Shown: positions 2,092 to 62,479, counted from the first letter of the stretch. The stretch: DNA of 64,000 bases from a virus (IMGVR_UViG_3300028833_002293:36535-100534); one strand, 5' to 3'. Notes: a model not told the origin generated them from the letters alone. Numbers and translations: made by a program.

Positions 2092-2128
2092 ATTGTTGTA
2101 TGTTTAGTTTGTGCAAATATATAAAAAA

Positions 2129-2160
2129 ACGTGGAAGATAACAAATCCTCCACGTTAAAT
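2129..2160 (-). terminator. rho-independent-type terminator hairpin (minus strand) followed by a U-run, nested in a promoter cassette
   Basis: acgtggaagataacaaatcctccacgt inverted repeat; the minus strand then reads TTTTTTT. Confidence 0.55.
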
Positions 2161-2164
2161 TATA

Positions 2165-2395
2165 TTAAAAAAAGCGTTTCTTGAAAGAATCAAAAACTTC
2201 TACCCACGAAATTAGGAATAAGAGCAATGCTCTCCAACAATAAAGTAGAAAATGATATATGTTCACAATCGGAACAAATACTACTTTAACGTTTTCCTTT
2301 ATGAAAGGATTATAGCCTTCAGATAGCATGAGTAGAATTAATGCTATCATTGGAACAATGTAAAGCCAAAATACCCAAATCATTAATGTATTCAT
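2165..2395 (-). CDS. small hydrophobic membrane protein
   Basis: 76 aa ORF, very hydrophobic (two predicted TM segments); promoter motif at 2418..2460; terminator hairpin 2129..2160 immediately downstream. Confidence 0.45.
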   Translation of the reverse strand: MNTLMIWVFWLYIVPMIALILLMLSEGYNPFIKENVKVVFVPIVNIYHFLLYCWRALLLFLISWVEVFDSFKKRFF

Positions 2396-2579
2396 AGATT
2401 TTATTATTTAATATTACATCGCAAAGATATAAAAAAAAGATGAGATAAACAAATATCTATTGATAATTATTGTTAAAACAAGAATTATAAAAAAGATAAA
2501 ATATCATATAAGGTATACACTGATGAAAATGAATTGTATAAAGAATTGGATATTATATATAAAGAAAAACTGTAAGCAA

Positions 2580-3920
2580 TCAATGCTTACAGTTTTTTAT
2601 TAAATTAAGTATATATTCACACTTTTCTTTGTTTCCTAACATTTTCCCTTTATCATTTGATAGTTTAACACAATCTTGCCACTCACGGCTTTCAGTAATT
2701 CTAAATCCAGTGAGTTTTATTACAATATTGCTATATGGGAACTTCTTTACTTCAACTGGATAATTACCTCTTATAGTTTTTCCATCCTTTACCTCGTCTA
2801 TTGCCATTGGAGTACCTAGTGTTTCACACCAAAGATAACTTACGTCAGCGCATAAATGAGTTCCTATTCCCACTGAATCTTTCATTCGCCCATTGACCCA
2901 TTTGTGTAATTCTATAGCCTTGTCAATTGTAAGAGCATTTGAATACACGATTGCCTTTGTCGATGGGTCAATACCAAGAGAACGATACTTTTCAATAATC
3001 TTCTCAGTTTGTTCTTTCTCATCACCACTATCAACACGTAGGCCATCAAATGTTTTCGCAAGACGCTTAGACAAATTAGGGAAGAACATAACATCTGAGA
3101 AATTATCATAAAGGAAAATTCCGACATCACCGTTAAAACAGCGACTCCACTTATCCATTACTTGATAGTTACATTCAAACACGCCACTAACGCACTCTTC
3201 GGCAGATACAATCTGATGCGACATCGTGCCTATAACTCCAAGGTTAAATTCCTTTGCGAACCATACGTTAGATGTACCAACAAATTTACCTAATTTATCG
3301 GATTCTACAACTTGACCAACATTGCTACCTTTTCCGCTTTCAATGGCTTCTTGTGCTGCCTTTAAACCCCTAATAACCTCATGTTGAGCCTCGTATGAAA
3401 AGCGTCTACGAGTTCCCATGTCACTCCAACTAACACCATTTGCAATTAGTTTATTACCTTTAATAAAAGCCTCTTGAAAAACAGTATCCATATTAACCAA
3501 TTTCATATCACCATTGATAGTGTGCATCAACTCAGAAATGGTGGAGAGAATAGGCATTTCCCACATAATTGTAGAATACCACTTACCCTCAATCATGATT
3601 GAGAGATAACCCTCAAGGTCTTGGAAAATGTGAACCTCAGATGGGTTGAAACGGAAACCACGCAAGAAATTGTAATACCAATCTGGAAGGAAATAAATCT
3701 TGCTCTTCATGAACTCAATCTCTTCCTCAGTGATAACGACATCTTTCATACCGTCAATCTGCTCTTGTAGAAGCTTACCAAAACCCTCTGGATAGCGAGT
3801 ATGGTTACGGTCAAAGAAAGAATACCGTACCTCTGCACGAGGATAAGTGTGAAGAATGTAATACTGGCAAGTGTACGTGTAAAGGTCATTGTCAGTGAAA
3901 TGTGTAACAATTTGATTCAT
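2580..3920 (-). CDS. nicotinate/nicotinamide phosphoribosyltransferase family enzyme (PncB/NadV-like)
   Basis: 446 aa ORF; size and overall composition match the type-II PRTase NAPRTase/NAMPT family; paired in this window with a nicotinamidase, an NMN deamidase and a Nudix enzyme. Confidence 0.55.
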   Translation of the reverse strand: MNQIVTHFTDNDLYTYTCQYYILHTYPRAEVRYSFFDRNHTRYPEGFGKLLQEQIDGMKDVVITEEEIEFMKSKIYFLPDWYYNFLRGFRFNPSEVHIFQDLEGYLSIMIEGKWYSTIMWEMPILSTISELMHTINGDMKLVNMDTVFQEAFIKGNKLIANGVSWSDMGTRRRFSYEAQHEVIRGLKAAQEAIESGKGSNVGQVVESDKLGKFVGTSNVWFAKEFNLGVIGTMSHQIVSAEECVSGVFECNYQVMDKWSRCFNGDVGIFLYDNFSDVMFFPNLSKRLAKTFDGLRVDSGDEKEQTEKIIEKYRSLGIDPSTKAIVYSNALTIDKAIELHKWVNGRMKDSVGIGTHLCADVSYLWCETLGTPMAIDEVKDGKTIRGNYPVEVKKFPYSNIVIKLTGFRITESREWQDCVKLSNDKGKMLGNKEKCEYILNLIKNCKH

Positions 3921-3923
3921 ATA

Positions 3924-4367
3924 TTATTTCTCTTTTATTTTTTCTAAATTTATTACTGTTTTCTCTCCAATACGTAATGGCATTTGTTTTACAAGTTCTA
4001 GCCCTTCTAGACCAATAACTTGACCACGACCAAGCCTATCTTGAATATAGGCTATAACGTAATGTTTATTCTGACCGTGTTCAGCAACACCAATTATTTT
4101 GAAATCACCTGCATTTTTTCTTGCATCCTCTTCGTCTTGATAATGTAAGAAATTAGAATAGTATGGAACTTGACACTTGCCAGTAAAATGAACAAATGCA
4201 CCCTTATAGGATGAATAAGATTCACCCCAATCCTTAACCTTTACAATATCTCCCACACGAAATGGAAACAAAATTGTACCCCCATCACTATTAATATATT
4301 CAAATAGTTTAATATTCATATTCTTGTTGGGTATATGCCCTAGTAGTATCTTGCTCATAATCATCAA
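3924..4367 (-). CDS. hypothetical protein
   Basis: 147 aa ORF tightly packed downstream of the PRTase gene. Confidence 0.5.
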   Translation of the reverse strand: MMIMSKILLGHIPNKNMNIKLFEYINSDGGTILFPFRVGDIVKVKDWGESYSSYKGAFVHFTGKCQVPYYSNFLHYQDEEDARKNAGDFKIIGVAEHGQNKHYVIAYIQDRLGRGQVIGLEGLELVKQMPLRIGEKTVINLEKIKEK

Positions 4368-4674
4368 CCTCTTCTATATCATCGGCTGTTTCTCTAGTGC
4401 TGCTCCTACCATAGTAACTATTTGAATTGTTATAATAGGGGTTATATCTATCATGGGAGTTCTTAGAAAGCTCTCCCATGAAATAGAATGTCTCAGCACA
4501 AGAAACCATTAGGCATAGAACTAAGGCAATTCTGATTAAGCCTCTGAATAAATCTCTTCCCATTACCCAATAGCCATTAGCCAATCTTAATATCTTCATA
4601 ATTCTCGTGATACCACTTGTCGAATTCCTCGAACTCAGCGTCTGAGAACTCCTTACGTACTGCATCATACTCAA
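4309..4674 (-). CDS. hypothetical protein (N/Y-rich low-complexity tail)
   Basis: 121 aa ORF; overlaps neighbours at both ends, so the true start may be internal. Confidence 0.3.
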   Translation of the reverse strand: MSMMQYVRSSQTLSSRNSTSGITRIMKILRLANGYWVMGRDLFRGLIRIALVLCLMVSCAETFYFMGELSKNSHDRYNPYYNNSNSYYGRSSTRETADDIEEVDDYEQDTTRAYTQQEYEY

Positions 4675-5488
4675 TGTAATCGCAATACTTCACCTTAACG
4701 ATGACACGAGTGGAACTACCATTGCCACTGTAAAGAGGAATGATGGGACGTGCTACAATACCCTCCTCAAGCATTGTTGGGTCAGCAGCTCCCTCAAATT
4801 TGGTAGTGAAGCCCTTACGTACCATATCCTCAATGTCACGCAAGGTCATAACACCCAAGAAAGGAACTTGCTCAAGGCCAAGACACTTGCACATTGCATC
4901 ACGGTTCTCCTTTGGCAACCACCAACCTTGCCGTTTGATGTCGAACACACGGAATCCATTACCATTCTGAATGTAGCGAGAACCACACTTCTGAATACCA
5001 GTACCGAAATACTCACCGTAGATATAAACTGGAACCTCTTCAAGGGTTACACGATACATATCGGAACATAATGTTTCTGCTTTATTTCCATCGAGCCTAT
5101 AGTACTCTATTTTATTTGTTTCTTTGTCTTTTCTTGGAGTAAATCTAGCACTCTCTTTAGGGAACATTGCGCAAAGTTGTGGCTTGATGCGCTCACCAAT
5201 CTCTTGCAGCATTTCAAACTGTCCATGCTGAGAGCTTGCTTTATCAGTTTTGCCTTCAATTAAAATTTCTTGAGTTGATGGGAAAAAAGCAATTTTGCTA
5301 CAAGTTCCATCAATTTTGCTATATGCCTCCCAAGGACAATTGAAAAGGTAACTAGCCTCAATGTTTGAAAACTCGCCCAAGATTATTTTATTCTTGAACT
5401 TAAGCCACTTCTTGTTTGGACATTTACTACCATCAAATACATACCTTTTATACAAGGTGTTTATTTTTTGATAAACTTCTAGGCTCAT
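4577..5488 (-). CDS. ATP-dependent RNA ligase-like protein
   Basis: 303 aa ORF with nucleotidyltransferase motif I KIDGT (KxDG) near residue 60, as in T4 Rnl-type RNA ligases. Confidence 0.5.
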   Translation of the reverse strand: MSLEVYQKINTLYKRYVFDGSKCPNKKWLKFKNKIILGEFSNIEASYLFNCPWEAYSKIDGTCSKIAFFPSTQEILIEGKTDKASSQHGQFEMLQEIGERIKPQLCAMFPKESARFTPRKDKETNKIEYYRLDGNKAETLCSDMYRVTLEEVPVYIYGEYFGTGIQKCGSRYIQNGNGFRVFDIKRQGWWLPKENRDAMCKCLGLEQVPFLGVMTLRDIEDMVRKGFTTKFEGAADPTMLEEGIVARPIIPLYSGNGSSTRVIVKVKYCDYIEYDAVRKEFSDAEFEEFDKWYHENYEDIKIG

Positions 5489-5506
5489 AAATTTTATTTT
5501 TATTAA

Positions 5507-5710: not shown

Positions 5711-5725
5711 TTTTTTATTATTTGT

Positions 5726-5808
5726 AGGACAATGTGGACTCGAACCACAGACCTCACCATACTAGTGTTTCCACGTTCTGCTGCGCTCTCCCAACTGAGC
5801 TATCGTCC
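5726..5808 (-). ncRNA. non-canonical tRNA-like element (acceptor, D-arm and T-arm present; anticodon region aberrant)
   Basis: reverse complement gives GGACGAT-A-GCTCAGTTGGGAGAGC...GTGGTTCGAGTCCAC-ATTGTCC; the interior does not fold as a normal anticodon arm; paralogous to the unit at 39745..39815. Confidence 0.4.
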
Positions 5809-6013
5809 TTAACGCAATCTTCATGCGGCTAGCGTTTCCTTCTTCCGCACTCATCCAAGTGATTGCTTGATAACCGACTGTTTTACAATCTCGGTCAAAC
5901 TAACTCCATTGCAAGCATCAATCTGTTCCGAAGTCGAGACTGTTATATCTTAGCAATGTCGTGTGGCAGGACTGCCCTCACCACGTCTTTCAGCTACCGT
6001 TTTGAAGCTTCAT

Positions 6014-6052
6014 GTTGCAAAGGTACGAAAAAATTTTCAAATACCCAAATAA
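6014..6052 (-). promoter_or_regulatory. Bacteroidota sigma-A-type promoter (-33 TTTG / -7 TAnnTTTG), variant copy
   Basis: plus: gttgcaaaggtacgaaaaaattttcaaatacccaaat; minus: ATTTGGG...(20 nt)...TACCTTTGCA. Confidence 0.5.
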
Positions 6053-6691: not shown

Positions 6692-6914
6692 TCTTCTTGA
6701 ATACGTCTTTGAAAGGCTTTACAATGCTTTTCCAACTGAATAGCCTATCAACTAATTTCTCACTGTCTAAGTCTATTACAAGACCCTCTAGTATTCCAAG
6801 TTTCTCTTTATATGTTGATGCCTCTTTTGAAACATCAACAAGGGTTGACTCCAACTGCTTGATTTTATTCTTCAAGCCATTGTACTCTGTCATCGGGATT
6901 TCTATCCTAGGCAT
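6675..6914 (-). CDS. hypothetical protein (coiled-coil-like)
   Basis: 79 aa ORF. Confidence 0.4.
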   Translation of the reverse strand: MPRIEIPMTEYNGLKNKIKQLESTLVDVSKEASTYKEKLGILEGLVIDLDSEKLVDRLFSWKSIVKPFKDVFKKNDKTE

Positions 6915-7489
6915 ACTCTTTCAGAATTTTCGATGAAGTTAGTAAACTTGTCAGCAGTATCTTGAGCGATTGCTGGACACAAATTCTTAATCACATGGAA
7001 ATTAACGTGAGGTAATCCCCTCAGTCCATCTTTTACAGAATCTTGGATGCAATAATCGTAGGCAATACCAGCGACATCAACATCAGTCACATTTAACTGC
7101 TCTTCACAGATTGTAATGAGCTTGTCACAAGATTTACCATTCTTGAAGATAGAATACTCTTCATGGTCTTCGTTTACGCCCTTTCTCAGAACAAGGTAAT
7201 CAGCCTTAATCTTGTTCAGTGCATCAAGAATTGGCTCATAGATAGCTGCACCTTTTGAATGCTGAACACAGTGAACTGGCCACATACCGCCATTATCCTT
7301 AAACGAACAGTGAGTGAACGGATGCCAGTCAACGGTAAGAATAATCTTATCATACACTGGACCATTTTCTATGATAAACTGAGCGAGTTTATCCATTGCT
7401 GCTGTTGCTCCATTAACAGCAAGCTTGCCACCTTCCAGGAAGTCGTATTGGCAATCAATCAGTAACAGTATTTTCGTCATTTGTTTCAC
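6902..7489 (-). CDS. pncA: nicotinamidase / isochorismatase-family hydrolase
   Basis: 195 aa; N-terminal LLLIDCQYDF and a catalytic Cys context typical of the PncA/isochorismatase fold. Confidence 0.6.
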   Translation of the reverse strand: MKQMTKILLLIDCQYDFLEGGKLAVNGATAAMDKLAQFIIENGPVYDKIILTVDWHPFTHCSFKDNGGMWPVHCVQHSKGAAIYEPILDALNKIKADYLVLRKGVNEDHEEYSIFKNGKSCDKLITICEEQLNVTDVDVAGIAYDYCIQDSVKDGLRGLPHVNFHVIKNLCPAIAQDTADKFTNFIENSERVCLG

Positions 7490-7874: not shown

Positions 7875-7997
7875 ATCTTATTATTTTTTCTGCAAAGATA
7901 CTAAAAATATTTTAAATATAAAAATATTATATAATATATTATATTTTATTAATATTATTTAATATATTATTATATATTACTTAAAGAACCTAATAGA

Positions 7998-9392
7998 TTA
8001 GACTGTTAGGCTCTTCAGTTTGTTCTCTACAATCTCAAATGCTTCATCCTTAGTCATGTTAGGATTCTCAAAGTAAGCATCTTTAACAGTTTCAAGGAGT
8101 ATTCCTATTGTTGGAGAAGGTTTGATTTTAAATTCTTTTATGATGTCATTCCCAGAAATTGGAAGTTTTACATTTGCAGCTTTCTCAGCATCTTCCATTT
8201 CCTCAATTCTATTAAGAATATCAAGAACTTGTCTCTTCTTCTTACCATAGGTACAGTGCAAGTTGTTTGCATTCATCAAGTCAACAGTTGTGCCAAGGTC
8301 TTCACCAGTGAGGTTAATGAACTTCCTAATCTTCTTATCTGGAGGCATCACACCATCAGCATAAGGCGCAAATCCCCTATGGAACTTAATGGCAGTCTCT
8401 ACCGCCTTAATAATATAGTTAGGGAACTTCATTGCCTTAAGGTCATCAGCAGCCACTTCAGCACTGAATTTGTCTGGATTAACGTCTCTCCTTCTGTCAG
8501 TAATGATTCTGCCAACGTCATGGAACAACGCAGCTAAACGGTTCTCAAGATACGGCTGCACAGTATCAACCACGTTCATGGTATGGTCGAAAGTAGATAC
8601 CATTGGATTCTTTGACTCAAACGCATAAGTTGTGTCGTAAATGTCTGGCATTACTCTATGCAGTATTCCACAGTAGTACATTTTGCGAATACCAATACTA
8701 GGCTTTTTACAAAGCAGTATCTTTGAGATTTCGTCACTGATACGCTCTTGAGAGATTATCTTGATTCGATGTGCATTTTTAACCATACCCAACCATGTAT
8801 TCTTCTCAATACCCCAACCAAATCTAGTTGAGAAACGTATAACACGCAGTATTCTCAATGGGTCATCGTTGAACGTAATGTCTGGGTCAGTCGGTGTCTT
8901 AATCACTTGGTTCACAAGGTCATCCAAACCGTTGTTATAATCGTGAATCTTCTCTGTGCTAATGTTGTAGTACAGAGAGTTGATTGTAAGGTCACGTCTC
9001 TTAGCATCCTCTTGAATCGTACCATACACTGTGTCTGGATTTCTGCTCTCCTTATGATACTGCTCCTTACGAGTCTGAACACACTCAATCTCAATGTCTT
9101 TCAGCTCATCGTTTTTATAAAGCTGAAATTTAGCAGTTCCATATGTCTCAAACACGACTGGATTAGTTCCTTGTATATAACACTGATGCTTCATTGCCAT
9201 GTAACTTGCAAAGAGCATCCCCCCATTTTTGATTTCAATAACGATGTCAACGTCTTTTATGGGTTCATTGAGTAACGCATCCCTCACAGCACCGCCACAA
9301 ATATATACTTTTCCTTCAAAATGAGTTCCTTTAATTGAAGACTGTATTAGTTTTAACAGCTTTTTTATTTTTTCATCCTTGAAAATTTCCAT
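7998..9392 (-). CDS. cca: CCA-adding tRNA nucleotidyltransferase with HD domain
   Basis: 464 aa; Pol-beta head motif GGAVRDALL...DVDIV plus an HD-domain (HDVGR) region, as in bacterial CCA-adding enzymes. Confidence 0.65.
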   Translation of the reverse strand: MEIFKDEKIKKLLKLIQSSIKGTHFEGKVYICGGAVRDALLNEPIKDVDIVIEIKNGGMLFASYMAMKHQCYIQGTNPVVFETYGTAKFQLYKNDELKDIEIECVQTRKEQYHKESRNPDTVYGTIQEDAKRRDLTINSLYYNISTEKIHDYNNGLDDLVNQVIKTPTDPDITFNDDPLRILRVIRFSTRFGWGIEKNTWLGMVKNAHRIKIISQERISDEISKILLCKKPSIGIRKMYYCGILHRVMPDIYDTTYAFESKNPMVSTFDHTMNVVDTVQPYLENRLAALFHDVGRIITDRRRDVNPDKFSAEVAADDLKAMKFPNYIIKAVETAIKFHRGFAPYADGVMPPDKKIRKFINLTGEDLGTTVDLMNANNLHCTYGKKKRQVLDILNRIEEMEDAEKAANVKLPISGNDIIKEFKIKPSPTIGILLETVKDAYFENPNMTKDEAFEIVENKLKSLTV

Positions 9393-10353: not shown

Positions 10354-10549
10354 TTTAATACATTTTTTTCTTTTTGCAAATATATGAAAAAAAGTTGAAT
10401 TGACAAAATATCAACCCAACTTTTAACTTTTTTTATGGTTCTTTTTACTCTTAAAAGAACCAATACCCAATAATGCGAATAAGGCATAAATACCTCCAAT
10501 TGTCCAACAAATTGGGCATAGTATCAAATTAACCATAATGTATTATTTT

Positions 10550-12810: not shown

Positions 12811-12849
12811 CTTTGAGTTAGGTTTAAAATGTTTAACATAAATTTCCTT

Positions 12850-12890
12850 TTTGCAAAGATATGTTTTTTTTTCTTAAAAAACAAATAAAA
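12850..12890 (-). promoter_or_regulatory. Bacteroidota-type promoter upstream of the phosphoesterase gene
   Basis: ttgcaaagatatg...acaaat. Confidence 0.55.
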
Positions 12891-15005: not shown

Positions 15006-15098
15006 TGTTTATGAAATAATTTAAATTTGTTTCTTGTTTGTTTTGTGCAAAGATATATCTAATTTTTCTATCTGCCAAATTTTTTTAGTTAACAAAAC

Positions 15099-17818: not shown

Positions 17819-19309
17819 TTAGAATTTAATTTCGTTACTAAATTTCTCTGTGATAGCCTTTTCAAATTCATCGAATTTGATGCTAGCCTTTTCACATAAG
17901 TCCTTTACGGCTTCAAGAACCTCTTCCTTGATTGCAAGTATATGAGAGTCATAACGATTGACGATATACTTGACAGACTCAAACTTGAGTTCATCTTCTT
18001 TCTTGGTTGCGGTAGTTGTTGTAGTGGTGCTACGTGTGGTCTGTGCGCCATATCCGTAGTAGCTTCTACGGTTGTTATCACCAAGGTCTTGGAGCATTTC
18101 TGTATCGTCAACAGCAACACGCTCGTATGTACCGTTATTGTTACGCCTGAACGAATTCTCAGTGCTAGAAGTCCAGCTGTTGCCTACATGCTTCAGCTTA
18201 TGCTCTGTGCAACCAATATTGTCGATAAGGTCAATACCCATACCGCAAGCTTGGTCCATATCCTCAACGATAATATACTCACTTGGTGAGTGTGCGTAGT
18301 AGCCGCCATTACCGAAATTCATACAGATAATATCTGTCTTCTCACGAATGTTCTTAACATCCGTGTAAGGCTCTGAGAAGAAACAACCCTTGGTAAGACC
18401 CCAACGGTCACAAACCTCTTTCATGTGTTTTGTGTAGAACTCGTAGCTAAACAGCTTCACTCCATTACAAGACCATGCAGCACGATAAAGGTCTGGAGAG
18501 TCATAACCAATCACGTAACCTACATCCTTGAACCAATCTAAGTCAAGTGCGTTAGAACCGTGACAGCCAGTTTCCTCATCCAAGAAGAAACAAGCCTTGA
18601 GTTTATCAAGATGGTCAAACATTGACAGACAGATGCAGACACCACTCTTATCATCAGCACCGATACCGATTGCTGCGCCACCATTTGCATCCACACTTAC
18701 CTTGTGATACCCCTCCTTAGTTCTCTCAGTTTTGAGGTCAAGAGGTACACCAGCGTAGATATATGGGTCTTGCTTGTCTTGCACTGTGTCCAAGTGTGAC
18801 GTTACACAAGGATAAAACTCACCTTCTGCAAGCTCACCCTTTGTGAGATATACGTTTCCGAAATCGTCAAACTCGTATTTGACACCATTTCTTCTTGCCC
18901 ATAAAATGATGAATGTCACCATGCGATACTCTTTCTTAGAATGAGTTGGCACAGCCATACAATCATACACGAAGCTTTTGTCCAAATAGAGCAACTGCAT
19001 ATCATCGTCTTTTGGGTCTTCAGGCAGTTCTACTTTCTTTTCCTCTTCGCTGGGCTTTGACTCATTTGAGTTAGCATTTGTTGCTGTGTTTACATCAGCA
19101 TTAGGGGTGTTTTCTGCACCCTTATTCTCTACATTCTCATTAGAGTCATTTTTCTGTTCTTTTTCAGCCTCACTAGGAATGTTTACATTTTCCTCATAAG
19201 GCGTGTTGGCAACAACATTGCCATTCTCAGTTAAATTCTTTGAGTCAGCCATTTCTATTATTGATTTAATAAGTTTCTGCAAAGATATAATTTTTTTTTG
19301 GTTAAACAA
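17819..19309 (-). CDS. putative metallopeptidase-like protein with low-complexity N- and C-terminal regions
   Basis: 496 aa; SHLDTVQD resembles the HxDVV metal-binding motif of the M20/M28 families; promoter 19278..19315. Confidence 0.35.
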   Translation of the reverse strand: MFNQKKIISLQKLIKSIIEMADSKNLTENGNVVANTPYEENVNIPSEAEKEQKNDSNENVENKGAENTPNADVNTATNANSNESKPSEEEKKVELPEDPKDDDMQLLYLDKSFVYDCMAVPTHSKKEYRMVTFIILWARRNGVKYEFDDFGNVYLTKGELAEGEFYPCVTSHLDTVQDKQDPYIYAGVPLDLKTERTKEGYHKVSVDANGGAAIGIGADDKSGVCICLSMFDHLDKLKACFFLDEETGCHGSNALDLDWFKDVGYVIGYDSPDLYRAAWSCNGVKLFSYEFYTKHMKEVCDRWGLTKGCFFSEPYTDVKNIREKTDIICMNFGNGGYYAHSPSEYIIVEDMDQACGMGIDLIDNIGCTEHKLKHVGNSWTSSTENSFRRNNNGTYERVAVDDTEMLQDLGDNNRRSYYGYGAQTTRSTTTTTTATKKEDELKFESVKYIVNRYDSHILAIKEEVLEAVKDLCEKASIKFDEFEKAITEKFSNEIKF

Positions 19310-19344
19310 ATAATTAATAAAAACTTTAACGTTTTTTAATCAAA

Positions 19345-19590: not shown

Positions 19591-19945
19591 TGTGTAATAC
19601 TGAGTTTAGAAGTATTTTCTTGTCTTGGGATGGGAGTTTAAACCATTTACTTGAGAAGCGAGACAATCCAAACTGATTCTTAATCCGTGTTTTGTCCGTA
19701 TTCGCTAATGCGTCATAAGTTCTAATCAATTCACCTTTAAGAAGAATGTTCCTTTGATGATAAGTCAATTTATTAAAAATATTTGACCAATCATTTGTAG
19801 GTAAATGATACCTTGCAAATATGTGTTTGTATTTGGAACTAGTATGCAACCTTTCAGTAACGGTCTTCTTGTCCCATCTGTCGCTTGCCCTTCGCTCTAT
19901 TGAGGCACGTGATAATATGTTATTGCTACTTTCATTTTCAGCCAT
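19583..19945 (-). CDS. hypothetical protein
   Basis: 120 aa ORF. Confidence 0.4.
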   Translation of the reverse strand: MAENESSNNILSRASIERRASDRWDKKTVTERLHTSSKYKHIFARYHLPTNDWSNIFNKLTYHQRNILLKGELIRTYDALANTDKTRIKNQFGLSRFSSKWFKLPSQDKKILLNSVLHNG

Positions 19946-20478
19946 TATGAATTTTTTCTTTTTAAAATATGGAAATAAAATGACTTTTCAACACCTTCCC
20001 ATGAACTCACTTGAGCCATCGACTTATAATAAGTGTACCAATCATTTTCATTAATCTCTGGGAAACTGACATCACCTTCCTTATCATCTTTCACTATTGT
20101 AAGCCTTAACTCGTCAACCAAATCGCTATCCATAAACTGGCGATATACCGTCTCACCACCAATCACGAAAAGCTCCTTATCTGAGAAGAAAGCTTCGCAC
20201 AAATCAATCACATCTTGAACGGAATGAACAATGTAAGCATTGTCAAAATCTTGACTAACACCGTATTCCTTGTCAGAGGTCAGGATTATATTAATCCTAT
20301 CCTTTAAAGGCTCACTATTGGGCAAACTCTCAAATGTCTTTCTTCCCATAATCACAACATTGTTTTTTGTCATTCTAGCAAAATTTGCAATGTCATTCTT
20401 AATGGTATAAAGCAATTTACCGTCTTTTCCCAATGCCCTTTTTTGGTTAATACACGCAATAATCTTAAACATAAACAA
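19945..20478 (-). CDS. folA: dihydrofolate reductase
   Basis: 177 aa; N-terminal IIACINQKRALGKDGKLLY...VIMGRKTFESLP matches the DHFR signature; promoter 20495..20514. Confidence 0.7.
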   Translation of the reverse strand: MFMFKIIACINQKRALGKDGKLLYTIKNDIANFARMTKNNVVIMGRKTFESLPNSEPLKDRINIILTSDKEYGVSQDFDNAYIVHSVQDVIDLCEAFFSDKELFVIGGETVYRQFMDSDLVDELRLTIVKDDKEGDVSFPEINENDWYTYYKSMAQVSSWEGVEKSFYFHILKRKNS

Positions 20479-20513
20479 AAAATTAATTACTTTGCTGCAA
20501 AGATATAAAAAAA

Positions 20514-20545
20514 CATGGAGGATTCAAAATCCCCCACGTTAAATT
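20514..20545 (-). terminator. second copy of the same terminator hairpin
   Basis: acatggaggattcaaaatcccccacgt imperfect inverted repeat followed on the minus strand by a T-run; homologous to 2129..2160. Confidence 0.45.
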
Positions 20546-21756: not shown

Positions 21757-21858
21757 TTCTAATTTTTTTTAATTTTTAAAATTATTATTTAGTTTAAATA
21801 AATATCATATCCTCGTAATTTTTGCAAAGATATAAATATTTTTTTAGATTTCCAAATT

Positions 21859-22208: not shown

Positions 22209-22823
22209 TTAAACGTCCTCGTCTTCATCCAACAAACGCAACTGAAGAGAAATCTCTTCAATGCGAGTCTTGTGGTTGAAAGCCCACTCGTAGTTGTCAA
22301 TGTCCTTAATCTTGACCCACTTAATCTCGCCTACCTCTGCACCCTCATTCTTCTCTTTTGAGAACTTGAAATCAGTTGTAACGTGGTCTTCAATCTTAGC
22401 ACCAAAACGGAAAGTAACGTTCTGTCTATTGGCTGTTACTGGGTTATCTTCATAATTGATAAATATAAGACTTTCAATAGGAATATGAACACCAGTTTCC
22501 TCAAAACACTCACGGACTGCGCACTCCTTAGTGGTTTCGTCATAATCGAGATAACCGCAAGGACAATTCCACATTCCCCTAAAGTCAGCAGCCTCTAAAC
22601 CACGCTCTGATGCTAGGACACACCAATCGCCATCTTCGTCCTTACAAAACGCAAACAATGCTGTTGCCATAGAACGGCTAAACCATCCAATGAAACACTT
22701 GTTAATCACCTCCAAGAACGGTTCATCGTCAATACCAGCGACACCGATGTTGGCACAGAGGTTTTTGATTTCCTCAATAAGTTTATTCATGTCCAAACAA
22801 GGACGATTTGTCATTTTCTCCAT
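22209..22823 (-). CDS. Nudix hydrolase
   Basis: 204 aa; Nudix box GX5EX7REVCEETG is present (AVRECFEETGVHI). Confidence 0.6.
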   Translation of the reverse strand: MEKMTNRPCLDMNKLIEEIKNLCANIGVAGIDDEPFLEVINKCFIGWFSRSMATALFAFCKDEDGDWCVLASERGLEAADFRGMWNCPCGYLDYDETTKECAVRECFEETGVHIPIESLIFINYEDNPVTANRQNVTFRFGAKIEDHVTTDFKFSKEKNEGAEVGEIKWVKIKDIDNYEWAFNHKTRIEEISLQLRLLDEDEDV

Positions 22824-23829: not shown

Positions 23830-24063
23830 ACACTAATATTTGTGCAAAGATACTAAAAATTTTTCAAATACCCAAAAATTCTATGTTAAAAAACAATAAA
23901 AGTTGGTGTTTTACTCGACACCAACCTTGTTTTTAATAAATTCTGTATGCATATCTGTAATATCTATCATCATAGCATTGCGCATATTTATGAAAATACC
24001 ACTTTGCTGCTTTCTTAGCCATTTTTGCAATTGTCTTCATAATAAATTTCCCTTTCTTTAAAC

Positions 24064-24447: not shown

Positions 24448-24907
24448 AATAAATTTCCCTTTCTTTAATTTTTTTTTGTTATTACTTACTTCATTTTTTT
24501 ATTGGGGAAATAATCGGCACACTTACTTCCAAAAACTTAAAGCCGATAACCCCCAATGTTACACTTACTTTAACTAATTATTTCCCAAAGCCGTTGCCGC
24601 ACAACACCACCCAAAAACTACTCACTTCACTTAATATATATCACATCATACCATTTATTTAATTAATTTATATACATAATTTCTTTAAAAACACACTAAA
24701 TTTGATTTACGTCAATTCGTGGTGTGTGCGAACACATCAGTTGTTTTCAACGATGCAAAGATATGAAAAATATGCCTAATACACAAAAAATGGGTAATAA
24801 AAATTCAATTTACCCCTTTAAAATTGATACAAATCATCTTATGCATAGTGATAATACATATATATAATAAAGGAGTAACCTTGTTGATTACTCCTTATTA
24901 TATACTA

Positions 24908-29507: not shown

Positions 29508-29592
29508 TGTTGTTTAAGTTTAAAGGTTTATAAAAAGTTAATTGTGAATATTGTTTCGCAACTTGCGTTGCTTTGTTTGTTTCTTAATTACA

Positions 29593-29630
29593 GTGCAAAG
29601 ATATAAAAAATTTTTGAGACTTCCAAATTT
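29593..29630 (-). promoter_or_regulatory. Bacteroidota-type promoter (full consensus copy)
   Basis: gtgcaaagatataaaaaatttttgagacttccaaat. Confidence 0.6.
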
Positions 29631-32771: not shown

Positions 32772-32860
32772 TGTTTTTTATTATTTAAAGTTAATACTAT
32801 GTTGTTCTCAAATTCGATGCAAAGATATGAAAAATAATTGAAATACCCAAATTATTAATG

Positions 32861-33323: not shown

Positions 33324-33746
33324 GGACGCTATCTGTTTATTACGTCTATTATAGCAAAGACCTAAGTACTTAGAATGAAATCGAACTTTCAAAAGGCAAT
33401 GGCCTGTCACCTAATGACTCAGATTCCATCGTGGACCAGGTAGGGCTTGAACCTACGTGTAACCAATTACGGTTTCAACTGCTTATGAGGCAGAGCCGAT
33501 ACAAGTCCAAATTGCCAAAGGAACTTTCAGATTAATTCTATCGTATATGCCGTGCTTTACGCCTAGTCTCAACACATTTAAGCCATAATCTCACCGTTTA
33601 TGTCACACATACGAATCCTATGTTAGACTCTCTTTGGCTATGATTTTATTCAATAGTAGTCTTCATCATCATGAAGGCCTATCATAATTTATTTTTTTAG
33701 TTTCGTGATGCAAAGATACGAAAAAAAATTGAGATTACCAAATATT

Positions 33747-35476: not shown

Positions 35477-35569
35477 TACCTAATAATTTTATAATTTCAC
35501 TTTTTGCAAATATATAAAAAAAAATTGAACCAACCAAATAATTGATTCAATCTTAAACTTATTTAACAG

Positions 35570-36421: not shown

Positions 36422-36736
36422 TTATTCTGAAAGTCTTTTCAACTTATTGTTCAAAACAAGCAGCATACCTTCAGCAAGAAGCTTTTCATCTGTATGTCTC
36501 TGGATTGCCTCTTTCAACCTCTCTATTGCCACTTTCTTGGCTTCTTCTTCACTCTCATACACAAGTTGCCCATTAACGAGATAATCACCGTTCTCAAGGT
36601 CGGTTCTACCGATTTTGAACTTGGGTCTAGTTTTACCATCGTTAATAGGTTCTTTGACTACTTTTGATTCTATGACATCGTAGCCATTTATGTATATGGC
36701 AGTATCGCCAACATTTAAACTTGCTGCTTTTTTCAT
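36422..36736 (-). CDS. hypothetical protein
   Basis: 104 aa ORF; promoter 36739..36775. Confidence 0.5.
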   Translation of the reverse strand: MKKAASLNVGDTAIYINGYDVIESKVVKEPINDGKTRPKFKIGRTDLENGDYLVNGQLVYESEEEAKKVAIERLKEAIQRHTDEKLLAEGMLLVLNNKLKRLSE

Positions 36737-36738
36737 AT

Positions 36739-36775
36739 TGCAAAGATACGAAAAAAAGTTGAATTATCCAAATTT
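36739..36775 (-). promoter_or_regulatory. Bacteroidota-type promoter (full consensus copy)
   Basis: ttgcaaagatacgaaaaaaagttgaattatccaaat. Confidence 0.6.
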
Positions 36776-38687: not shown

Positions 38688-38759
38688 TGCGGAAAATGGG
38701 AGTCGAACCCACTGTTTTTTGCTTATGAGACAAACGTGTAAGCCGTTTCACTCTTCCGC
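38688..38759 (-). tRNA. tRNA-Met/Ile2 (anticodon CAU)
   Basis: reverse complement: GCGGAAG-AG-GTG..CAC-G-TTTGT-CTCATAA-GCAAA..GTGGG-TTCGACT-CCCAT-TTTCCGC-A. Confidence 0.6.
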
Positions 38760-39626: not shown

Positions 39627-39744
39627 AGGAGAATCGAACTCCAGAGGTCAAAACAAATACACCTCACGTATGGTCTTCTTATGCACAAAACCGACCAGCA
39701 AGTCACCACCCAACGTGTTTTTATGCCCCATAGATTTTACTTAC

Positions 39745-40000
39745 TTGCAGGGACTGACGGACTCGAACCGCCATCGTTTATTAACAGTTAAAGGCACACT
39801 CTGTTCCGAAGTCGAGACTGCGTTATTCCTTAAATCGCAACAAATTACTCTTACCATTAAGCTAAATCCCTATATAAATACAAAAGACTGAGAATTTTGT
39901 CTTATTGTTGATGCCATTCTACAACGGTTGGACGTTGCTCTTCACACGCTACCTTACGATAGACGTAGACACCATGCACGGACGGTCTTGTGAAGACCAC
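39745..40000 (-). ncRNA. LSU (23S) rRNA-like fragment, domain IV region (equivalent to E. coli ~1880-2070), containing a tRNA-like T-arm and a 22-nt repeat
   Basis: minus strand reads ...CTGCACCGTAAGGTTTAA...TCGTAAGGTAGCG...GAATGGC...CAGTCTCGACTTCGGAACAGAGTGTGCCTTTAACT, colinear with 23S H67-H71 and the GACGGAAAGACCCCGUGAACCUUUACU segment. Confidence 0.4.
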
Positions 40001-40964: not shown

Positions 40965-41100
40965 AAGAGTAGATTTGCACTACTGAAGCCTCCTAAGAGA
41001 CACATCAAGCACGAACTTGATGCCCATTTGTCTACATCACCATCACTGGTGTTCTCCTCTGGTACTTACCAAAAGGTGGTTTTTTACTTTGTCCACCGCA
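40965..41100 (+). repeat. LSU rRNA-like segment (E. coli ~2240-2320 equivalent), copy 1 of a ~135-bp direct repeat
   Basis: plus strand reads CCTCCTAAGAGA..AAGCACGAAC..ACATCA..GGT, compared with CCUCCUAAAGAGUAACGGAGGAGCACGAAGGUUGG...GACAUCAGGAGGUUAG; second copy at 41440..41570. Confidence 0.35.
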
Positions 41101-41439
41101 AAAACTCTTTGCGTTAAGAATTAACGTATTGTTGATGAGGATTTTTCGAGTCAACAAATCATTCTAGACTAACTTGAAGACCTACCCACAGCTTCCTAGA
41201 CATTTTGCGCATTGTTCTAGTAAACACTAGCCTCATCACTACCGTTTTAGCTGCGAGATTCAATATTATTGCAGTATTGCAAAGGCTGATTCATTTTACA
41301 GAACCAATTTAATGGTAAAGGACATCTGCTATATTTCGTACAGTTGTATGTTTGTCGCAACCTCACTTTCCTCGCCAACCTTTACTGCCGATTGCACATG
41401 AACGTTTATACTGCTTAGTTGGTAGAGCTAGATTTGCAC

Positions 41440-41570
41440 TAGCGAAGACTCCGAAGAGCCACATCAAGCACGAACTTGATGCCCATTTGTCTACATCAAC
41501 CTAAAAGGTTGTTCTCCTCTGGTATCTACCAAAAGGTGGTTTTTTAACTTGTCCACCACAAGAATTGTTG
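41440..41570 (+). repeat. LSU rRNA-like segment, copy 2 of the direct repeat
   Basis: ~85% identical to 40965..41100. Confidence 0.35.
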
Positions 41571-41652
41571 CGGGAGTTGGATTCGAACCAACACAATGCG
41601 AGTTCCGTCTCAAGGTTATGAGCCTTGCATGTTACCATTACACTATCCCACA
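41568..41652 (-). tRNA. tRNA with CAU anticodon and an 18-nt variable region (class-II-like body)
   Basis: reverse complement: TGTGGGA-TA-GTGT-AATGGTA-ACAT-G-CAAGG-CTCATAA-CCTTG-(18 nt)-GTTGG-TTCGAAT-CCAAC-TCCCGCA-A; promoter 41757..41795 upstream. Confidence 0.5.
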
Positions 41653-41756
41653 ATATTATGTATCTAAGTCGGAAACTATATTTTTTTCGCGTTTTAGATT
41701 TACAGTCTAATGAAAAGTTAATTAATTGCTGTAAGTTTCCTTTATTAGTTTCAACT

Positions 41757-41795
41757 TTGCAAAGATATGAAAAATATTTTTAATATCCAAAATTT
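41757..41795 (-). promoter_or_regulatory. Bacteroidota-type promoter driving a tRNA transcription unit
   Basis: ttgcaaagatatgaaaaatatttttaatatccaaaat; the 5' leader contains the GGAAACTTACAGCAA motif; tRNA at 41568..41652. Confidence 0.6.
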
Positions 41796-42065: not shown

Positions 42066-42167
42066 TGTTTATCCTTTCGTTTAACAGTGCAAAGATATAG
42101 AAAATTTTCGAGATTTCCAAATATTGGAAGAACTTTTTTGTTAAAAGATGTTAACTGATTGATTATC

Positions 42168-42255
42168 AGTAACTTAGTGGAGCTAGAGGGAGTCGAACCC
42201 TCGTGCAAACAACCATTCCATAAGAAATTATACAAGCTTCCCCAAAGTGTTCGAA
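42168..42255 (-). ncRNA. tRNA-like element (canonical T-arm GAGGG-TTCGACT-CCCTC; acceptor pairing unclear)
   Basis: T-arm and adjacent 3' strand present; the 5' strand could not be paired cleanly. Confidence 0.25.
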
Positions 42256-42571
42256 AACACCGCCTTTGAGACCACCTCATTTTGTGAAAACGAGGAAAAC
42301 TAGGGGGGATGACTGGGAGTCACCGATTCCACCATTCAGTTTTGAGAAAACCGAAAAAACAAAATGCTAGGTTGTTCTGTTCCTAAGAGCCTAGCCTCTC
42401 GGCTCACTTACGCTGCAATAGCGTACTCGTAAGCAGGAGAATTAACATTCTCGCCAGTTATAGTTTTTGCTATTTTGGGTGTATGCCCACCGCTTGTTTC
42501 TTACCAAACGCATTGCTGTCAAATCCATTATAGCCCCATACGTTTCAAATGCTCAAAGAACTCTTTTAATG

Positions 42572-42645
42572 TGGTGATGGAGTGACTCGAACACCCAACC
42601 TATTGAATATCAGTCAATTGCGCTGACCAGTTGCGCCACATCACC
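42572..42645 (-). tRNA. tRNA-Ile (anticodon GAU)
   Basis: reverse complement: GGTGATG-TG-GCGC-AACTGGTCA-GCGC-A-ATTGA-CTGATAT-TCAAT-AGGTT-GGGTG-TTCGAGT-CACTC-CATCACC-A; clean cloverleaf. Confidence 0.7.
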
Positions 42646-42679: not shown

Positions 42680-42750
42680 TACGGAAACGTTTTAATACAT
42701 TAAGTTGCTCTAGCCAACTGAGCTACAAGGAGCATAAAACTCCTCGATGG
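42680..42750 (-). ncRNA. split / permuted tRNA-like pair: T-arm plus acceptor 3' strand lies immediately upstream of an acceptor 5' strand plus D-arm
   Basis: minus strand: GGGTTCGAATCCCAT-CGAGGAG-TTTTAT-GCTCCTTG-TAGCTCAGTTGGCTAGAGCA; the two acceptor strands can pair (with two G-U). Confidence 0.3.
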
Positions 42751-43083
42751 GATTCGAACCCATGACCTACTACTTACAAGGCTTATTAAAAAACTATTGC
42801 TGTCTGTTTCCTTAGCGCTTGAGGTCGGATTTGCACCTTCTGTCTCTGTCTCCATCTTTCGATTTTGTACCAGCGTTTATACTACTTAACACTTCTCAAG
42901 CATGTTTCGCCTACTGTACTCATGTGATAACTTGAAAATGTATCACAACAAGCCATCGCAGACTTGTCTTGCATTAACGTAGTTAAGACCAATATACGGC
43001 ATTCTTGACCTAAAGTATGCTTACGAACACGTTATATATATACTGTTTATCATGCCATAAAACCTCTAACGTGTAAAAGGTTA

Positions 43084-43206: not shown

Positions 43207-43228
43207 ATCGTTATTTTTTTTTTTACTC

Positions 43229-43268
43229 TGCAAAGATATGAAAAAAAATTGGAATATCCAAATTCTTT
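43229..43268 (-). promoter_or_regulatory. Bacteroidota-type promoter
   Basis: ctgcaaagatatgaaaaaaaattggaatatccaaat; exactly 20 nt between the TTTG and the TAtcTTTG on the minus strand. Confidence 0.6.
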
Positions 43269-43359: not shown

Positions 43360-43691
43360 AGTTTGGCACGAACATTTTGCCATATACACATATAGAATCT
43401 TTATGTTAAGCGAAACAACCGTAGTTGAAAAGGGGCTTGCACCCTTATCCTTCCCAGATGCTATACAGGAATGCTTTATTTTCTACCTTGAGTATTGCTA
43501 GACAAACTCAGTGCCTTTTCTTGTATCAGTTATGGTCTATTACAGACCTACCTTGCCCTTATACTTGTAAGCAAACCAACCGATAACTCCACCCAAAATG
43601 AATTCAATCATAGTTGTAATATTTTTAAAAGATTAGACAATTAATTTGATGTTGCAAAGATATAAAAAATATTTTTAATTTCCAAATAAAA

Positions 43692-47668: not shown

Positions 47669-47753
47669 ATATTTTTATATATGTTGCAAAGATACGAAAA
47701 AAATCTGAGACTACCAAATTCTTTAACGTTTTTTGTGATTTTAGTACATCCTT

Positions 47754-59479: not shown

Positions 59480-59562
59480 GCTCTAACCCTACTGAGCTAC
59501 CGCCACATATAGATAATAAATGGTGTGGCGGACAGGATTCGAACCTGTGACCCCTAGCATAG
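59480..59562 (-). ncRNA. permuted or split tRNA arrangement: 3' half (T-arm plus CCGCCAC-ACCA) lies 14 nt upstream of its complementary 5' half (GTGGCGG plus D-arm)
   Basis: minus strand: ...ACAGG-TTCGAAT-CCTGT-CCGCCAC-ACCA-TTTATTATCTATAT-GTGGCGG-TA-GCTC-AGTAGGGTTA-GAGC-AC...; acceptor strands are perfectly complementary and a CCA is encoded. Confidence 0.35.
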
Positions 59563-59605
59563 CGTGCTTTTTAAACGATGTACTTTGCTGTACGTTTCCA
59601 CCTTG

Positions 59606-61418: not shown

Positions 61419-61843
61419 AACATTGCCTTTAAAAAACGGATACTTTTGTTTAATAGACCAATACCTACGAATAGGTGCTTAAACCATTTTATTAGGTTTA
61501 GCTTGGATTCGAACCAAGAAATTGTAACAAAGTCACATTGCTGTTAGTATCCTTGAGTTAACTATATCAACTATCACGTTTGGACTGCTACTAGAGACCT
61601 TACCCCCATCCATACCTCTCTAGGAAGATAACCTAGCACATTCTTTCAATTTCCATGACCCCACAGTTTATTGGACTTACGTGGCACGATTATTTGATAT
61701 ATAGTTGATGGTGTGGGATTCGAACCCACGTTGCCGATAGGCTGCGTTCCTACAGAAATTATTCACCTATCCATAGGATTCACTACTCTCTAGTTTCTTT
61801 TAGTACCGCCTTGCGCAATCCAGCTTACTGAACCATCAATTTG

Positions 61844-61916
61844 TCGAGAATGTTGGATTTGAACCACTCCCCATCACCCCAGATGACGTATGCTACCCGT
61901 TTACACTACATTCTCG
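61844..61916 (-). tRNA. tRNA, anticodon uncertain (possibly GGG, Pro-type); canonical acceptor stem and T-arm
   Basis: reverse complement: CGAGAAT...GTGG-TTCAAAT-CCAAC-ATTCTCG-A. Confidence 0.4.
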
Positions 61917-61929
61917 ATTTTCGGAAACA

Positions 61930-62000
61930 TTTTTTATTTTTTACATTGCTCTACCAACTGAGCTACAACGAGCTATTGCCCATTGAAGAGACTCGAACTC
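61930..62000 (-). ncRNA. third instance of a T-arm/acceptor-3' segment immediately upstream of a tRNA 5' half (GCTCGTT plus D-arm)
   Basis: minus strand: AAGAG-TTCGAGT-CTCTT-CAATGGG-C-AATA-GCTCGTT-GTA-GCTC-AGTTGGTA-GAGC-AATG. Confidence 0.25.
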
Positions 62001-62214
62001 TTGACCTACGGATTACAAATCATAATAAAAACGTTTGCATTGCTGTATGTTTCCTTTTATGTTTTATGAGACTGTTTTGGCTCTATGCTTTCTGTTCTAT
62101 CACGTTCCAATACGTAATCCCTAAGAAGGGTTAGGCTTAACGAATTATTCTTTTACATTTCATTCGCCCTCTTGCTACTATAGCAAGACTGTGATTACTC
62201 ACCGTTCAGTCTCA

Positions 62215-62285
62215 TTGAGCAAGCCTATGGAATTGAACCATTCTCGCCCTCGGTTGAGGACAGTGCTACCGTTACACCAAAGCCG
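62215..62285 (-). ncRNA. mini tRNA-like element (acceptor-like end, D-arm, one hairpin, TTCAATT T-loop; no anticodon arm)
   Basis: reverse complement: GCGGCTT-TG-GTGT-AACGG..GTCCTC-AACC-GAGGGC..ATGG-TTCAATT-CCAT. Confidence 0.25.
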
Positions 62286-62299
62286 CATTTCATTTCTGT

Positions 62300-62338
62300 T
62301 TTGCAAAGATATATAAAATATTTCTTATTTCCAAATTT
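62300..62338 (-). promoter_or_regulatory. Bacteroidota-type promoter in the tRNA array
   Basis: ttgcaaagatatataaaatatttcttatttccaaat. Confidence 0.55.
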
Positions 62339-62479
62339 TTTAGAATTTTTTTTATTAAAATCCCATTTCTTCTTTTTGGGCGAAGTGTTGGTAATGCTCC
62401 AACGTCTTGAGTGCCACAAACTCACATTCTGCTTTTGAACTAACTACGCCATATTAAAAAAATCGGAATCTATTTTTTT

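Follow-up and report, generated by a model that had tools for sequence, protein, structure and literature searches.

Near-consensus promoters of predicted host type, some overlapping putative terminators, in an uncultured Bacteroidales megaphage

A uniform set of probable minus-strand promoter repeats

The 64,000-nt stretch of viral DNA IMGVR_UViG_3300028833_002293:36535-100534, called the window here and used at its full length for all coordinates, carries 26 copies of an extended repeat with the -33/-7 elements of Bacteroidota promoters. These repeats are very probably near-consensus promoters for the primary-sigma (sigma-ABfr type) RNA polymerase (RNAP) of the host, used by an uncultured Bacteroidales megaphage of a ~400-kb family. 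They would serve the auxiliary, nucleic-acid-metabolism and tRNA region of the phage. The window is AT-rich (31-41% G+C) with a negative GC skew throughout, and its minus strand holds all sizeable open reading frames (ORFs) that overlap no other ORF, as well as all 28 tRNAs called by ARAGORN.

The preliminary description of this DNA had reported more than 25 copies of the motif, all on the minus strand, and pattern and matrix scans found a copy at each of the 26 positions listed there. Copies are named after the plus-strand left end of the core 17-mer; the listed positions agreed to within 1-3 nt, except that the copy placed at 10384 lies 9 nt away, at 10375. The 17-mer, TGCAAAGATAYGAAAAA as written on the plus strand, gave 21 matches with up to two mismatches where 0.12 were expected, in one orientation only. 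The pattern TTTG-N18-22-TAnnTTTG matched 26 times on the minus strand and twice on the plus strand, with ~1 match expected from shuffled sequences. Twenty-five of these minus-strand matches are listed copies and the remaining one, at 49409, is probably due to chance, while the listed copy 7891 escapes the pattern by having TTTT at -33. A 42-nt matrix applied at a threshold of at least 10 bits found 24 minus-strand sites and no plus-strand site (shuffle maximum 11.5). The matrix scan of both strands proposed earlier was also run on the window with a two-block matrix, in which the -7 block and the -33 block were combined with a spacing varied by 1. Exactly 26 minus-strand sites, the listed copies, scored at least 20 bits, the best plus-strand site scored 17.5 bits, and no minus-strand site in the window fell between 10 and 20 bits. 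The 26-copy observation is confirmed because this matrix recovered exactly the listed sites with an empty 10-20-bit gap. The repeat set is sharply bimodal, with no continuum, and a second, weaker promoter population in the promoter-less gaps was rejected, as nothing scored in that range. Only one extra intergenic -7 box was present on the minus strand, and sigma-70-type sites occurred at chance level in all three 20-kb segments scanned. All 26 copies are intergenic and co-oriented with the genes in a window that is ~22% intergenic; two overlap only short, doubtful ORFs, one of these overlapping the tmRNA gene.

The minus-strand consensus is aaaA-TTTGG-nn-ATTTCAAnTn-TTTTT-YR-TATCTTTGCA-nn-R. 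It has the canonical Bacteroidota layout, with TTTG at -36..-33, a 20-nt spacer and TAHHTTTG at -12..-5 relative to the predicted start (+1), and the boxes and spacing bear out the earlier reading of the set as Bacteroidota-type promoters. The -7 element TA..TTTG is present in 26 of 26 copies, with TC, TA or CC and never G at the variable positions, and TTTG lies N19-20 upstream of it in all copies but 7891. Among the 25 listed copies with exact TTTG, 22 have a spacer of 20 nt from TTTG to TA and three have one of 19 nt, and the TTT of the -33 box keeps a single fixed register in the 21 profiled copies. Five nucleotides after the G of the -7 box, every copy has a purine (A in 18, G in 8), taken here as the predicted +1. 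Extra conserved blocks are a T-run at -19..-15, ATTTCAA at -29..-23 and CA after the -7 box. Mapped promoters of Flavobacterium johnsoniae have T-12, A-11, T-8, T-7, T-6 and G-5, and the start follows 4-5 nt later; their variable -7 positions are never G, and AT-rich motifs have their centres at -18 and -28 (PMC6847099). With the invariant purine as +1, the boxes of the window fall exactly at the F. johnsoniae positions (G-5/T-12), and the T-run and ATTTCAA block coincide with the -18 and -28 motifs.

From the sequence we infer recognition by host sigma-A and a transcription start at the purine 5 nt past the -7 box G. Unmodified host holoenzyme would bind TTTG at -36..-33 and TAHHTTTG at -12..-5 across the fixed 20-nt spacer, aided by phased A/T tracts upstream of -33 and by the AT-rich blocks near -28 and -18. 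Most mRNAs would carry a ~20-nt A-rich leader without a Shine-Dalgarno sequence, and the window would be divided into ~26 co-directional units of 0.3-5.6 kb. The copies and the four hairpins fused to them are listed below; promoter coordinates run from the predicted +1 to the A of ATTTG, leaders are counted from the predicted +1, CDS is coding sequence, and dG is in kcal/mol.

2109..2146 (-): promoter copy 2112, terminator-fused; 18-nt leader to CDS 2091..1738
2128..2156 (-): terminator hairpin, 12 pairs, dG -16.9, z -7.4; -33 box in the loop, U-tract identical with the T-run
2417..2454 (-): promoter copy 2420; 22-nt leader to a 76-aa ORF
6013..6050 (-): promoter copy 6016; ~200-nt leader, then tRNA-like gene 5809..5725
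7888..7925 (-): promoter copy 7891; TTTT at -33; 14-nt leader
10372..10409 (-): promoter copy 10375, terminator-fused; 19-nt leader
10390..10424 (-): terminator hairpin around the -33 box, 16 pairs, dG -15.0, z -5.4
12849..12886 (-): promoter copy 12852, A-run variant; 39-nt leader
15043..15080 (-): promoter copy 15046, mixed-run variant; 38-nt leader to an ankyrin-repeat protein gene
19275..19312 (-): promoter copy 19278, A-run variant; 23-nt leader
20493..20530 (-): promoter copy 20496, terminator-fused; 21-nt leader to the DHFR gene
20512..20540 (-): terminator hairpin homologous to 2128-2156, 13 pairs, dG -16.7, z -4.5
21820..21857 (-): promoter copy 21823; 64-nt leader
23840..23877 (-): promoter copy 23843; 11-nt leader; separate terminator 23899-23928 just upstream
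24751..24788 (-): promoter copy 24754; 304-nt leader to a CDS
29591..29628 (-): promoter copy 29594; 84-nt leader
32815..32852 (-): promoter copy 32818; 44-nt leader
33706..33743 (-): promoter copy 33709; long leader or short ORFs ahead of tRNA-Met 33324
35502..35539 (-): promoter copy 35505, terminator-fused; 26-nt leader
35521..35554 (-): terminator hairpin around the -33 box, dG -12.7, z -4.6
36736..36773 (-): promoter copy 36739; predicted +1 is the A of an ATG
41755..41792 (-): promoter copy 41758; 103 nt to tRNA-Met, then a GOLLD-like RNA
42085..42122 (-): promoter copy 42088; 20-nt leader; kept with the downstream gene in four relatives, upstream flank unrelated
43226..43263 (-): promoter copy 43229; directly after tRNA-Val; 20-nt leader; conserved in three relatives
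43650..43687 (-): promoter copy 43653; long leader ahead of tRNA-Val
47682..47719 (-): promoter copy 47685; 20-nt leader
52558..52595 (-): promoter copy 52561; tRNA-Phe 7 nt past the predicted +1, heading a tRNA array
54147..54184 (-): promoter copy 54150, A-run/mixed variant; 22-nt leader
56714..56751 (-): promoter copy 56717; abuts the upstream gene's stop codon; 17-nt leader
62299..62336 (-): promoter copy 62302; tRNA-like sequence from ~15 nt downstream

For 20 of the 26 copies, a start codon or tRNA follows at a distance of 0-84 nt. The predicted +1 was separated from a protein start codon by 0, 11, 14, 17, 18, 19, 20, 20, 20, 21, 22, 22, 23, 26, 38, 39, 44, 64 and 84 nt, with 304 nt for copy 24754, and tRNAs begin 7 nt after one predicted +1 and 103 nt after another. 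Four further copies precede the next ARAGORN tRNA or CDS by 290-385 nt, and downstream of 6016 Rfam places a tRNA-like gene ~200 nt away. The leader mode of ~20 nt matches the modal leader of 23 nt determined by differential RNA sequencing in B. thetaiotaomicron (PMC7366714). At promoter 36739 the predicted +1 coincides with the first base of the start codon (ATG) of a 104-aa ORF (36736..36422, minus strand), so its mRNA is probably leaderless; in B. thetaiotaomicron only ~3.7% of leaders measure less than 10 nt. Gaps of ~300-380 nt separate a promoter from the next annotated gene at 24448-24750, 33325-33705 and 43360-43649 (minus strand), and could hold long leaders, short ORFs or unannotated RNAs.

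Neighbouring promoters are between 308 nt and 5.6 kb apart (median ~2 kb). The preliminary description had pictured tRNA and protein genes as transcribed in many short independent units. This was only partly right, because several units are mixed and recognisable minus-strand terminators are absent from the tRNA-rich part. Single-small-gene units do exist, for example from 2420 to 2112. Several others combine tRNA arrays, non-coding RNAs and protein genes: the 4.9-kb unit from 52561 to 47701 has 12 tRNAs and eight predicted ORFs (one of them, 43 aa inside the tRNA array, doubtful), and the unit from 41758 has a GOLLD-like RNA along with tRNA-Met and other tRNAs. Canonical minus-strand terminators were present in the first 30 kb, whereas the terminator scan recognised none in the tRNA-rich 40-60 kb part.

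Host counterparts and viral relatives of the promoters

In a scan that covered each prokaryotic species with one genome, the strict 35-nt pattern ATTTGG-N12-TTTTTYRTATCTTTGCA occurred in at least 120 stretches of cellular Bacteroidales genomes, with one match per locus, and the matches listed included Prevotella/Segatella, Paludibacteraceae, Bacteroidaceae, Rikenellaceae, Muribaculaceae and other Bacteroidales. All 80 host records listed were from Bacteroidales, save one that was unclassified, which upholds the host phylum Bacteroidota assigned earlier and lets us narrow the host with confidence to the order Bacteroidales. As judged from N-terminal sequences, the genes that follow the host copies include those for ribosomal proteins S6 (rpsF), S20 (rpsT), L28 (rpmB) and L33 (rpmG), trigger factor (tig), tyrosyl-tRNA synthetase (tyrS), RmlA, ParB and a DNA polymerase III beta subunit (dnaN-like); other copies precede tRNAs. 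Leaders of the host copies were mostly 15-60 nt. A text search of the literature for the promoter core sequence returned unrelated papers only, and the subject of the crAss001 paper is host invertible promoters rather than phage promoters.

The same pattern occurred in at least 113 stretches of IMG/VR viral contigs. Four ~410-kb contigs and one 295-kb contig each had several matches along their whole length, mostly on one strand per contig; the sample numbers of these contigs presumably denote ruminant gut or rumen metagenomes. The ~410-kb relatives are IMGVR_UViG_3300028048_000038, 3300021387_000463, 3300032007_000003 and 3300011989_000257. Several relatives are collinear with the window, at 65-97% identity in patches, and none is identical to it. 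Its DNA had no match among 50,697 phage records, and protein searches gave only a weak match to a 635-kb uncultured phage and two fecal fragments. A BLAST search of the phage records with the 42-nt consensus yielded mostly short partial matches, some of them to Bacteroidota phages and gut microviruses, that are too weak to serve as evidence. At orthologous sites the promoter is conserved together with its leader and downstream gene, and the sequence upstream can be unrelated; non-orthologous copies are similar over ~55-75 nt. Among 108 promoter-proximal genes of the relatives, a PHROGs scan identified helicases, HNH endonucleases, RNA-binding and similar proteins, but no head or tail protein and a single weak large-terminase match. 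This gives a weak indication that the promoter-proximal genes are of the non-structural class, weak because most of the proteins had no PHROGs match.

For comparison with unselected host sequences we used 101 further perfect-box promoters from the same host loci, with the ascertained copy excluded. Their consensus is aaaaATTTG..tAT.TcaAAAAaaatt.GTA.cTTTGCA. Features found in these promoters too, and therefore general among host promoters, are the phased upstream A-tracts, the A that precedes TTTG, the AT.TCAA block, the A/T run ahead of the -7 box, and the C and A that follow that box. The extended conservation noted earlier is thus real and is mostly the host consensus, obeyed more strictly. 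Since every extra block is shared with unselected host promoters, a phage-specific recognition factor would not be called for.

The preliminary description had suggested a phage-specific promoter class, and such a class, read by a phage sigma or specificity factor or by a chemically modified host RNAP and used inefficiently by the unmodified enzyme, is improbable. The exact 35-nt pattern stands before ordinary chromosomal genes, housekeeping genes among them, in at least 120 Bacteroidales genomes, and each extra block has a counterpart in the unselected host promoters and in the published -18 and -28 motifs. In favour of such a class, the phage copies stand apart not only by their bimodality but also by the degree to which they follow a common form: the information outside the core was 28.3 bits in the window, 24.2 bits in viral loci (282 non-ascertained promoters) and 19.6 bits in the host (20.0 bits, standard deviation 2.5, in host subsamples of 22), and GG followed TTT in 82% of copies compared to 45% in host promoters. 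Perfect-core promoters were about three times as dense as in host DNA (0.34 versus 0.11 per kb). It is still less credible that the copies are non-promoter repeats (for replication, packaging or transposon ends) or recent functionless duplications, which we regard as having next to no probability: this would account for the repetition itself and nothing more, while all 26 copies are intergenic, co-oriented and at a fixed short distance from start codons, are conserved at orthologous sites, and are identical in form to host promoters.

We therefore favour promoters for the host primary-sigma RNAP. The statistics, position and orientation of the motif, its conservation with the downstream gene, its identity with host promoters, and the enrichment and covariation of the hairpins described below were computed directly. 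Several points nevertheless weigh against this reading. Start sites, promoter strength and the timing in infection are predictions. The host promoters were drawn from loci selected for one strict copy. The T-run was present in 82% of window copies, 54% of the family and 28% of unselected host promoters, a phage preference for T over A, and the phage set is moderately, though only moderately, tighter than host promoters; because of this tightness and the favoured T-run, there may be an added phage-specific preference. Screening of 30 window proteins revealed no transcription-related domain, whether sigma, anti-sigma, RNAP or ADP-ribosyltransferase; a sigma factor or RNAP modifier could be encoded elsewhere in the ~400-kb genome.

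Putative composite terminator-promoters

Two copies had been described as fused to a homologous terminator hairpin, and we found both (2128-2156 and 20512-20540), together with two additional fused copies, 10375 and 35505, bringing the total to 4 of 26. The four hairpins have stems of 12-16 pairs followed by T5-T8, with dG between -12.7 and -16.9 kcal/mol and z between -4.5 and -7.4; no significant hairpin was found in the other 22 copies of the window. All four composites have the -33 box in the loop, flanked by a stem that abuts the T-run, which is at the same time the U-tract. The hairpins of 2112 and 20496 differ in one pair by a compensatory change from A-U to G-C and in another by a change from G-C to G-U. 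In these four copies the same 45 bp would thus also encode the intrinsic terminator of the upstream unit. With the stem arranged around the -33 box and the promoter T-run serving as U-tract, polymerase arriving from upstream would be released immediately ahead of the next -7 box, which would insulate the units from each other.

Across the family, with a hairpin defined by dG of -10 or lower and an abutting T-run, 80 of 464 distinct promoters from the window and viral loci were composite (17%), where 7.2 were expected with the upstream halves permuted and 6 with these reversed. Hairpins were essentially confined to the T-run class. Among the 80 composites there are 57 different 3' arms, most stem positions are filled by several Watson-Crick pair types, and ~15% of the stem pairs are G-U, corresponding to A-C mismatches on the opposite strand. 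Spacer positions 11-13 (C, A, A), which are also constrained in host promoters, are constant while the adjoining stem positions covary, and this points to a dual constraint. A separate idea, that the T-run is a mere terminator relic, was rejected: 14 of the 18 T-run promoters among the 22 perfect-core copies are hairpin-free (a figure that takes all four hairpin copies as T-run class), and the T-run frequency in unselected host promoters is a further argument against it. As 11 of 214 host promoters have the composite design (4.5 expected), it is not unique to phages, although it is far commoner in the phage family. Host composites were seen at loci L123, L131, L138, L178, L203, L208, L211 and L224, some of them before a conserved lipid-kinase-like gene in Paludibacteraceae.

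Since the inverted repeats stand on both sides of the -33 element, where a repressor would naturally bind, they could in principle be DNA operators at which a dimeric phage or host repressor occludes the promoter. A repressor would be expected to find one recognition sequence, but none is kept among the diverse, covarying arms; the G-T stem pairs are A-C on the other strand, and the stems always adjoin the T-run. We consider operators very improbable. The G-U pairs, which make the symmetry strand-specific, and the covariation of the arms favour a structure in the sense-strand RNA, i.e. a predicted intrinsic terminator. A second role, compatible with promoter function, is conceivable for the repeats as mobile regulatory cassettes, a Bacteroidota analogue of the promoter-early stem-loop (PeSL) cassettes of T4-like phages, in which modules of ~55-75 bp would act as homology patches to insert, delete or swap genes. 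The length of similarity between non-orthologous copies fits this idea, as do places where homology with relatives breaks at the upstream promoter edge (42088, 36739 and 35505). A comparison with three contiguous relatives was ambiguous: breakpoints fell at promoter edges at 36793, at 35574 (the end of a replaced gene, copy 35505) and upstream of 42088, but others fell at tRNAs or simply at places of high divergence, a 936-bp insertion has no second promoter copy at its far end, and merely conserved promoter islands would give the same pattern. We therefore regard the cassette role as possible but doubtful. The closest relative, IMGVR_UViG_3300028805_000083, lacks this insertion, segment 36794-37729, which holds a 259-aa ORF without its own promoter copy and meets the upstream edge of promoter 36739 at one boundary. 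Tentatively, then, about one in six promoters of these ~400-kb Bacteroidales phages might be dual-coded, with the -33 box in the terminator loop and the U-tract as -18 AT block, as an independent counterpart of PeSLs that insulates units and acts as portable homology patches for gene shuffling in accessory regions.

Accessory genes, significance and known systems

A large GOLLD-like non-coding RNA occupies 39885-40323 (minus strand) within the ORF-less stretch 39626-41567. The Rfam GOLLD model matched from end to end (1-416) with 85 bits (E ~1e-20; gathering score 150), and the signature blocks are conserved. The RNA has tRNA-Met (41567-41652) on its upstream side and a tRNA-like gene (39748-39871) after it; the nearest upstream promoter is 41758. 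A tRNA-flanked context has been described for GOLLD in phages (PMC12286853). Upstream of the core, two ~146-nt segments (40958-41104 and 41418-41562) each match both of two segments in relatives, which implies an internal duplication in the 5' part of the GOLLD-like RNA region.

Other RNA genes on the minus strand include a phage tmRNA gene at 42175-42537 (Rfam 76.9 bits, gathering 47; no ARAGORN call), directly after tRNA-Ile (42571-42645), and a 92-nt tRNA with a CUA anticodon at 36322-36413, an amber suppressor that ARAGORN labels 'Pyl'. Its length suggests a long variable arm, and it hints at TAG recoding elsewhere in the genome; the ORFs of the window read well with the standard code. Weak matches to YrlA (Y RNA-like) were found at 61929-62030, 59452-59572 and 42688-42790 (33-37 bits, gathering 69), the first of which reads like the 3' half of a tRNA followed by the 5' half, a permuted tRNA-like module. 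The tRNA-like sequence GCGGCTTTGGTGTAACGGTAGCAC...GGTTCAATTCC... at ~62215-62285, ~15 nt after promoter 62302, had neither an ARAGORN nor an Rfam call. The tRNA at 5725-5809, found by Rfam only (E-value mode, 42.9 bits), has an apparent insertion in the anticodon region, and the ~200-nt leader ahead of it (5810-6012, from promoter 6016) is possibly structured. Further tRNAs found by Rfam only are at 38688-38759, 62379-62449 and 62582-62653.

Genes at 2580-3920, 4577-5488, 6902-7480, 7998-9392 and 22209-22823 belong to NAD salvage and turnover (NAPRTase, isochorismatase-like, NUDIX) and to tRNA repair and maturation (RNA ligase, CCA-adding enzyme). They accompany more than 30 tRNA genes and DHFR at 19945-20472. 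Other domains in the 30 window proteins were HNH endonucleases, BspA-type LRR, SPFH, aspartyl protease, a KaiC/RecA-like ATPase and ankyrin repeats.

The promoter set provides a sequence-based Bacteroidales host assignment for an uncultured megaphage lineage without a close relative in the phage isolate collection searched, and a predicted transcription-unit map for part of it. It suggests that unmodified host polymerase can transcribe the accessory and tRNA region, a useful point for annotation, and the near-consensus copies could serve as strong constitutive promoters in Bacteroides or Prevotella engineering. Host-type promoters with a logic comparable to that of T4 early promoters are of an already known kind, and current understanding is not overturned. 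The most interesting addition is the dual-coded terminator-promoter module, enriched and covarying across the phage family, a neat and compact case of overlapping signals and a variant of a known design.

Sigma-ABfr promoters with -33 TTTG and -7 TAnnTTTG are established in B. fragilis, B. thetaiotaomicron (PMC7366714) and F. johnsoniae (PMC6847099). The phage copies resemble them in both boxes, the 19-21-nt spacing, G-5 with 4 nt to the start, the AT-rich -18 and -28 blocks, ~20-30-nt leaders without Shine-Dalgarno sequences, and the occurrence of the 35-nt pattern in cellular genomes. They differ in that every detectable phage copy comes close to the consensus and a weak tail is lacking, nearly all copies have a 20-nt spacing, the T-run is strongly preferred, and the density is about threefold higher. 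T4-like phages have early promoters with an extended sigma-70 consensus and an upstream A/T-rich region, read by unmodified host RNAP at the start of infection. These (described in PMC2839356) are also host-type copies in large number, nearer to consensus and conserved over a greater length than typical host promoters, and spread through regions of small accessory genes and tRNAs. The predicted sigma specificity is -33/-7 here rather than -35/-10. The promoter P_BfP1E6, which reportedly comes from Whitaker et al. 2017, likewise belongs to a phage, in this case a small B. fragilis phage rather than a megaphage. It is used in Bacteroides synthetic biology, is read by host RNAP alone in several Bacteroides species, and is several-fold stronger than P_rpoD or P_rRNA (bioRxiv 10.1101/2025.03.18.644028, PMC11554821); by its description, it shares the -33/-7 type and UP-like elements with the promoters of the window.

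The closest described analogue of the composite modules is the PeSL cassette of the T4-like phages RB49/phi1, PST and nt-1, which was shown to terminate transcription and to mediate recombination (PMC2839356, PMC4122927). Were the recombination role true, the PeSL concept would extend beyond T4-like phages. There is no sequence relationship between the two; the stem in the megaphage encloses the -33 box, its U-tract doubles as the -18 AT block, and only 15-17% of these phage promoters have a hairpin. Common to both are a strong host-consensus promoter with a terminator-type stem-loop inside it, G-T pairs in the stems, an A/T-rich upstream part that often includes the stop codon of the preceding gene, and many repeats in accessory regions.

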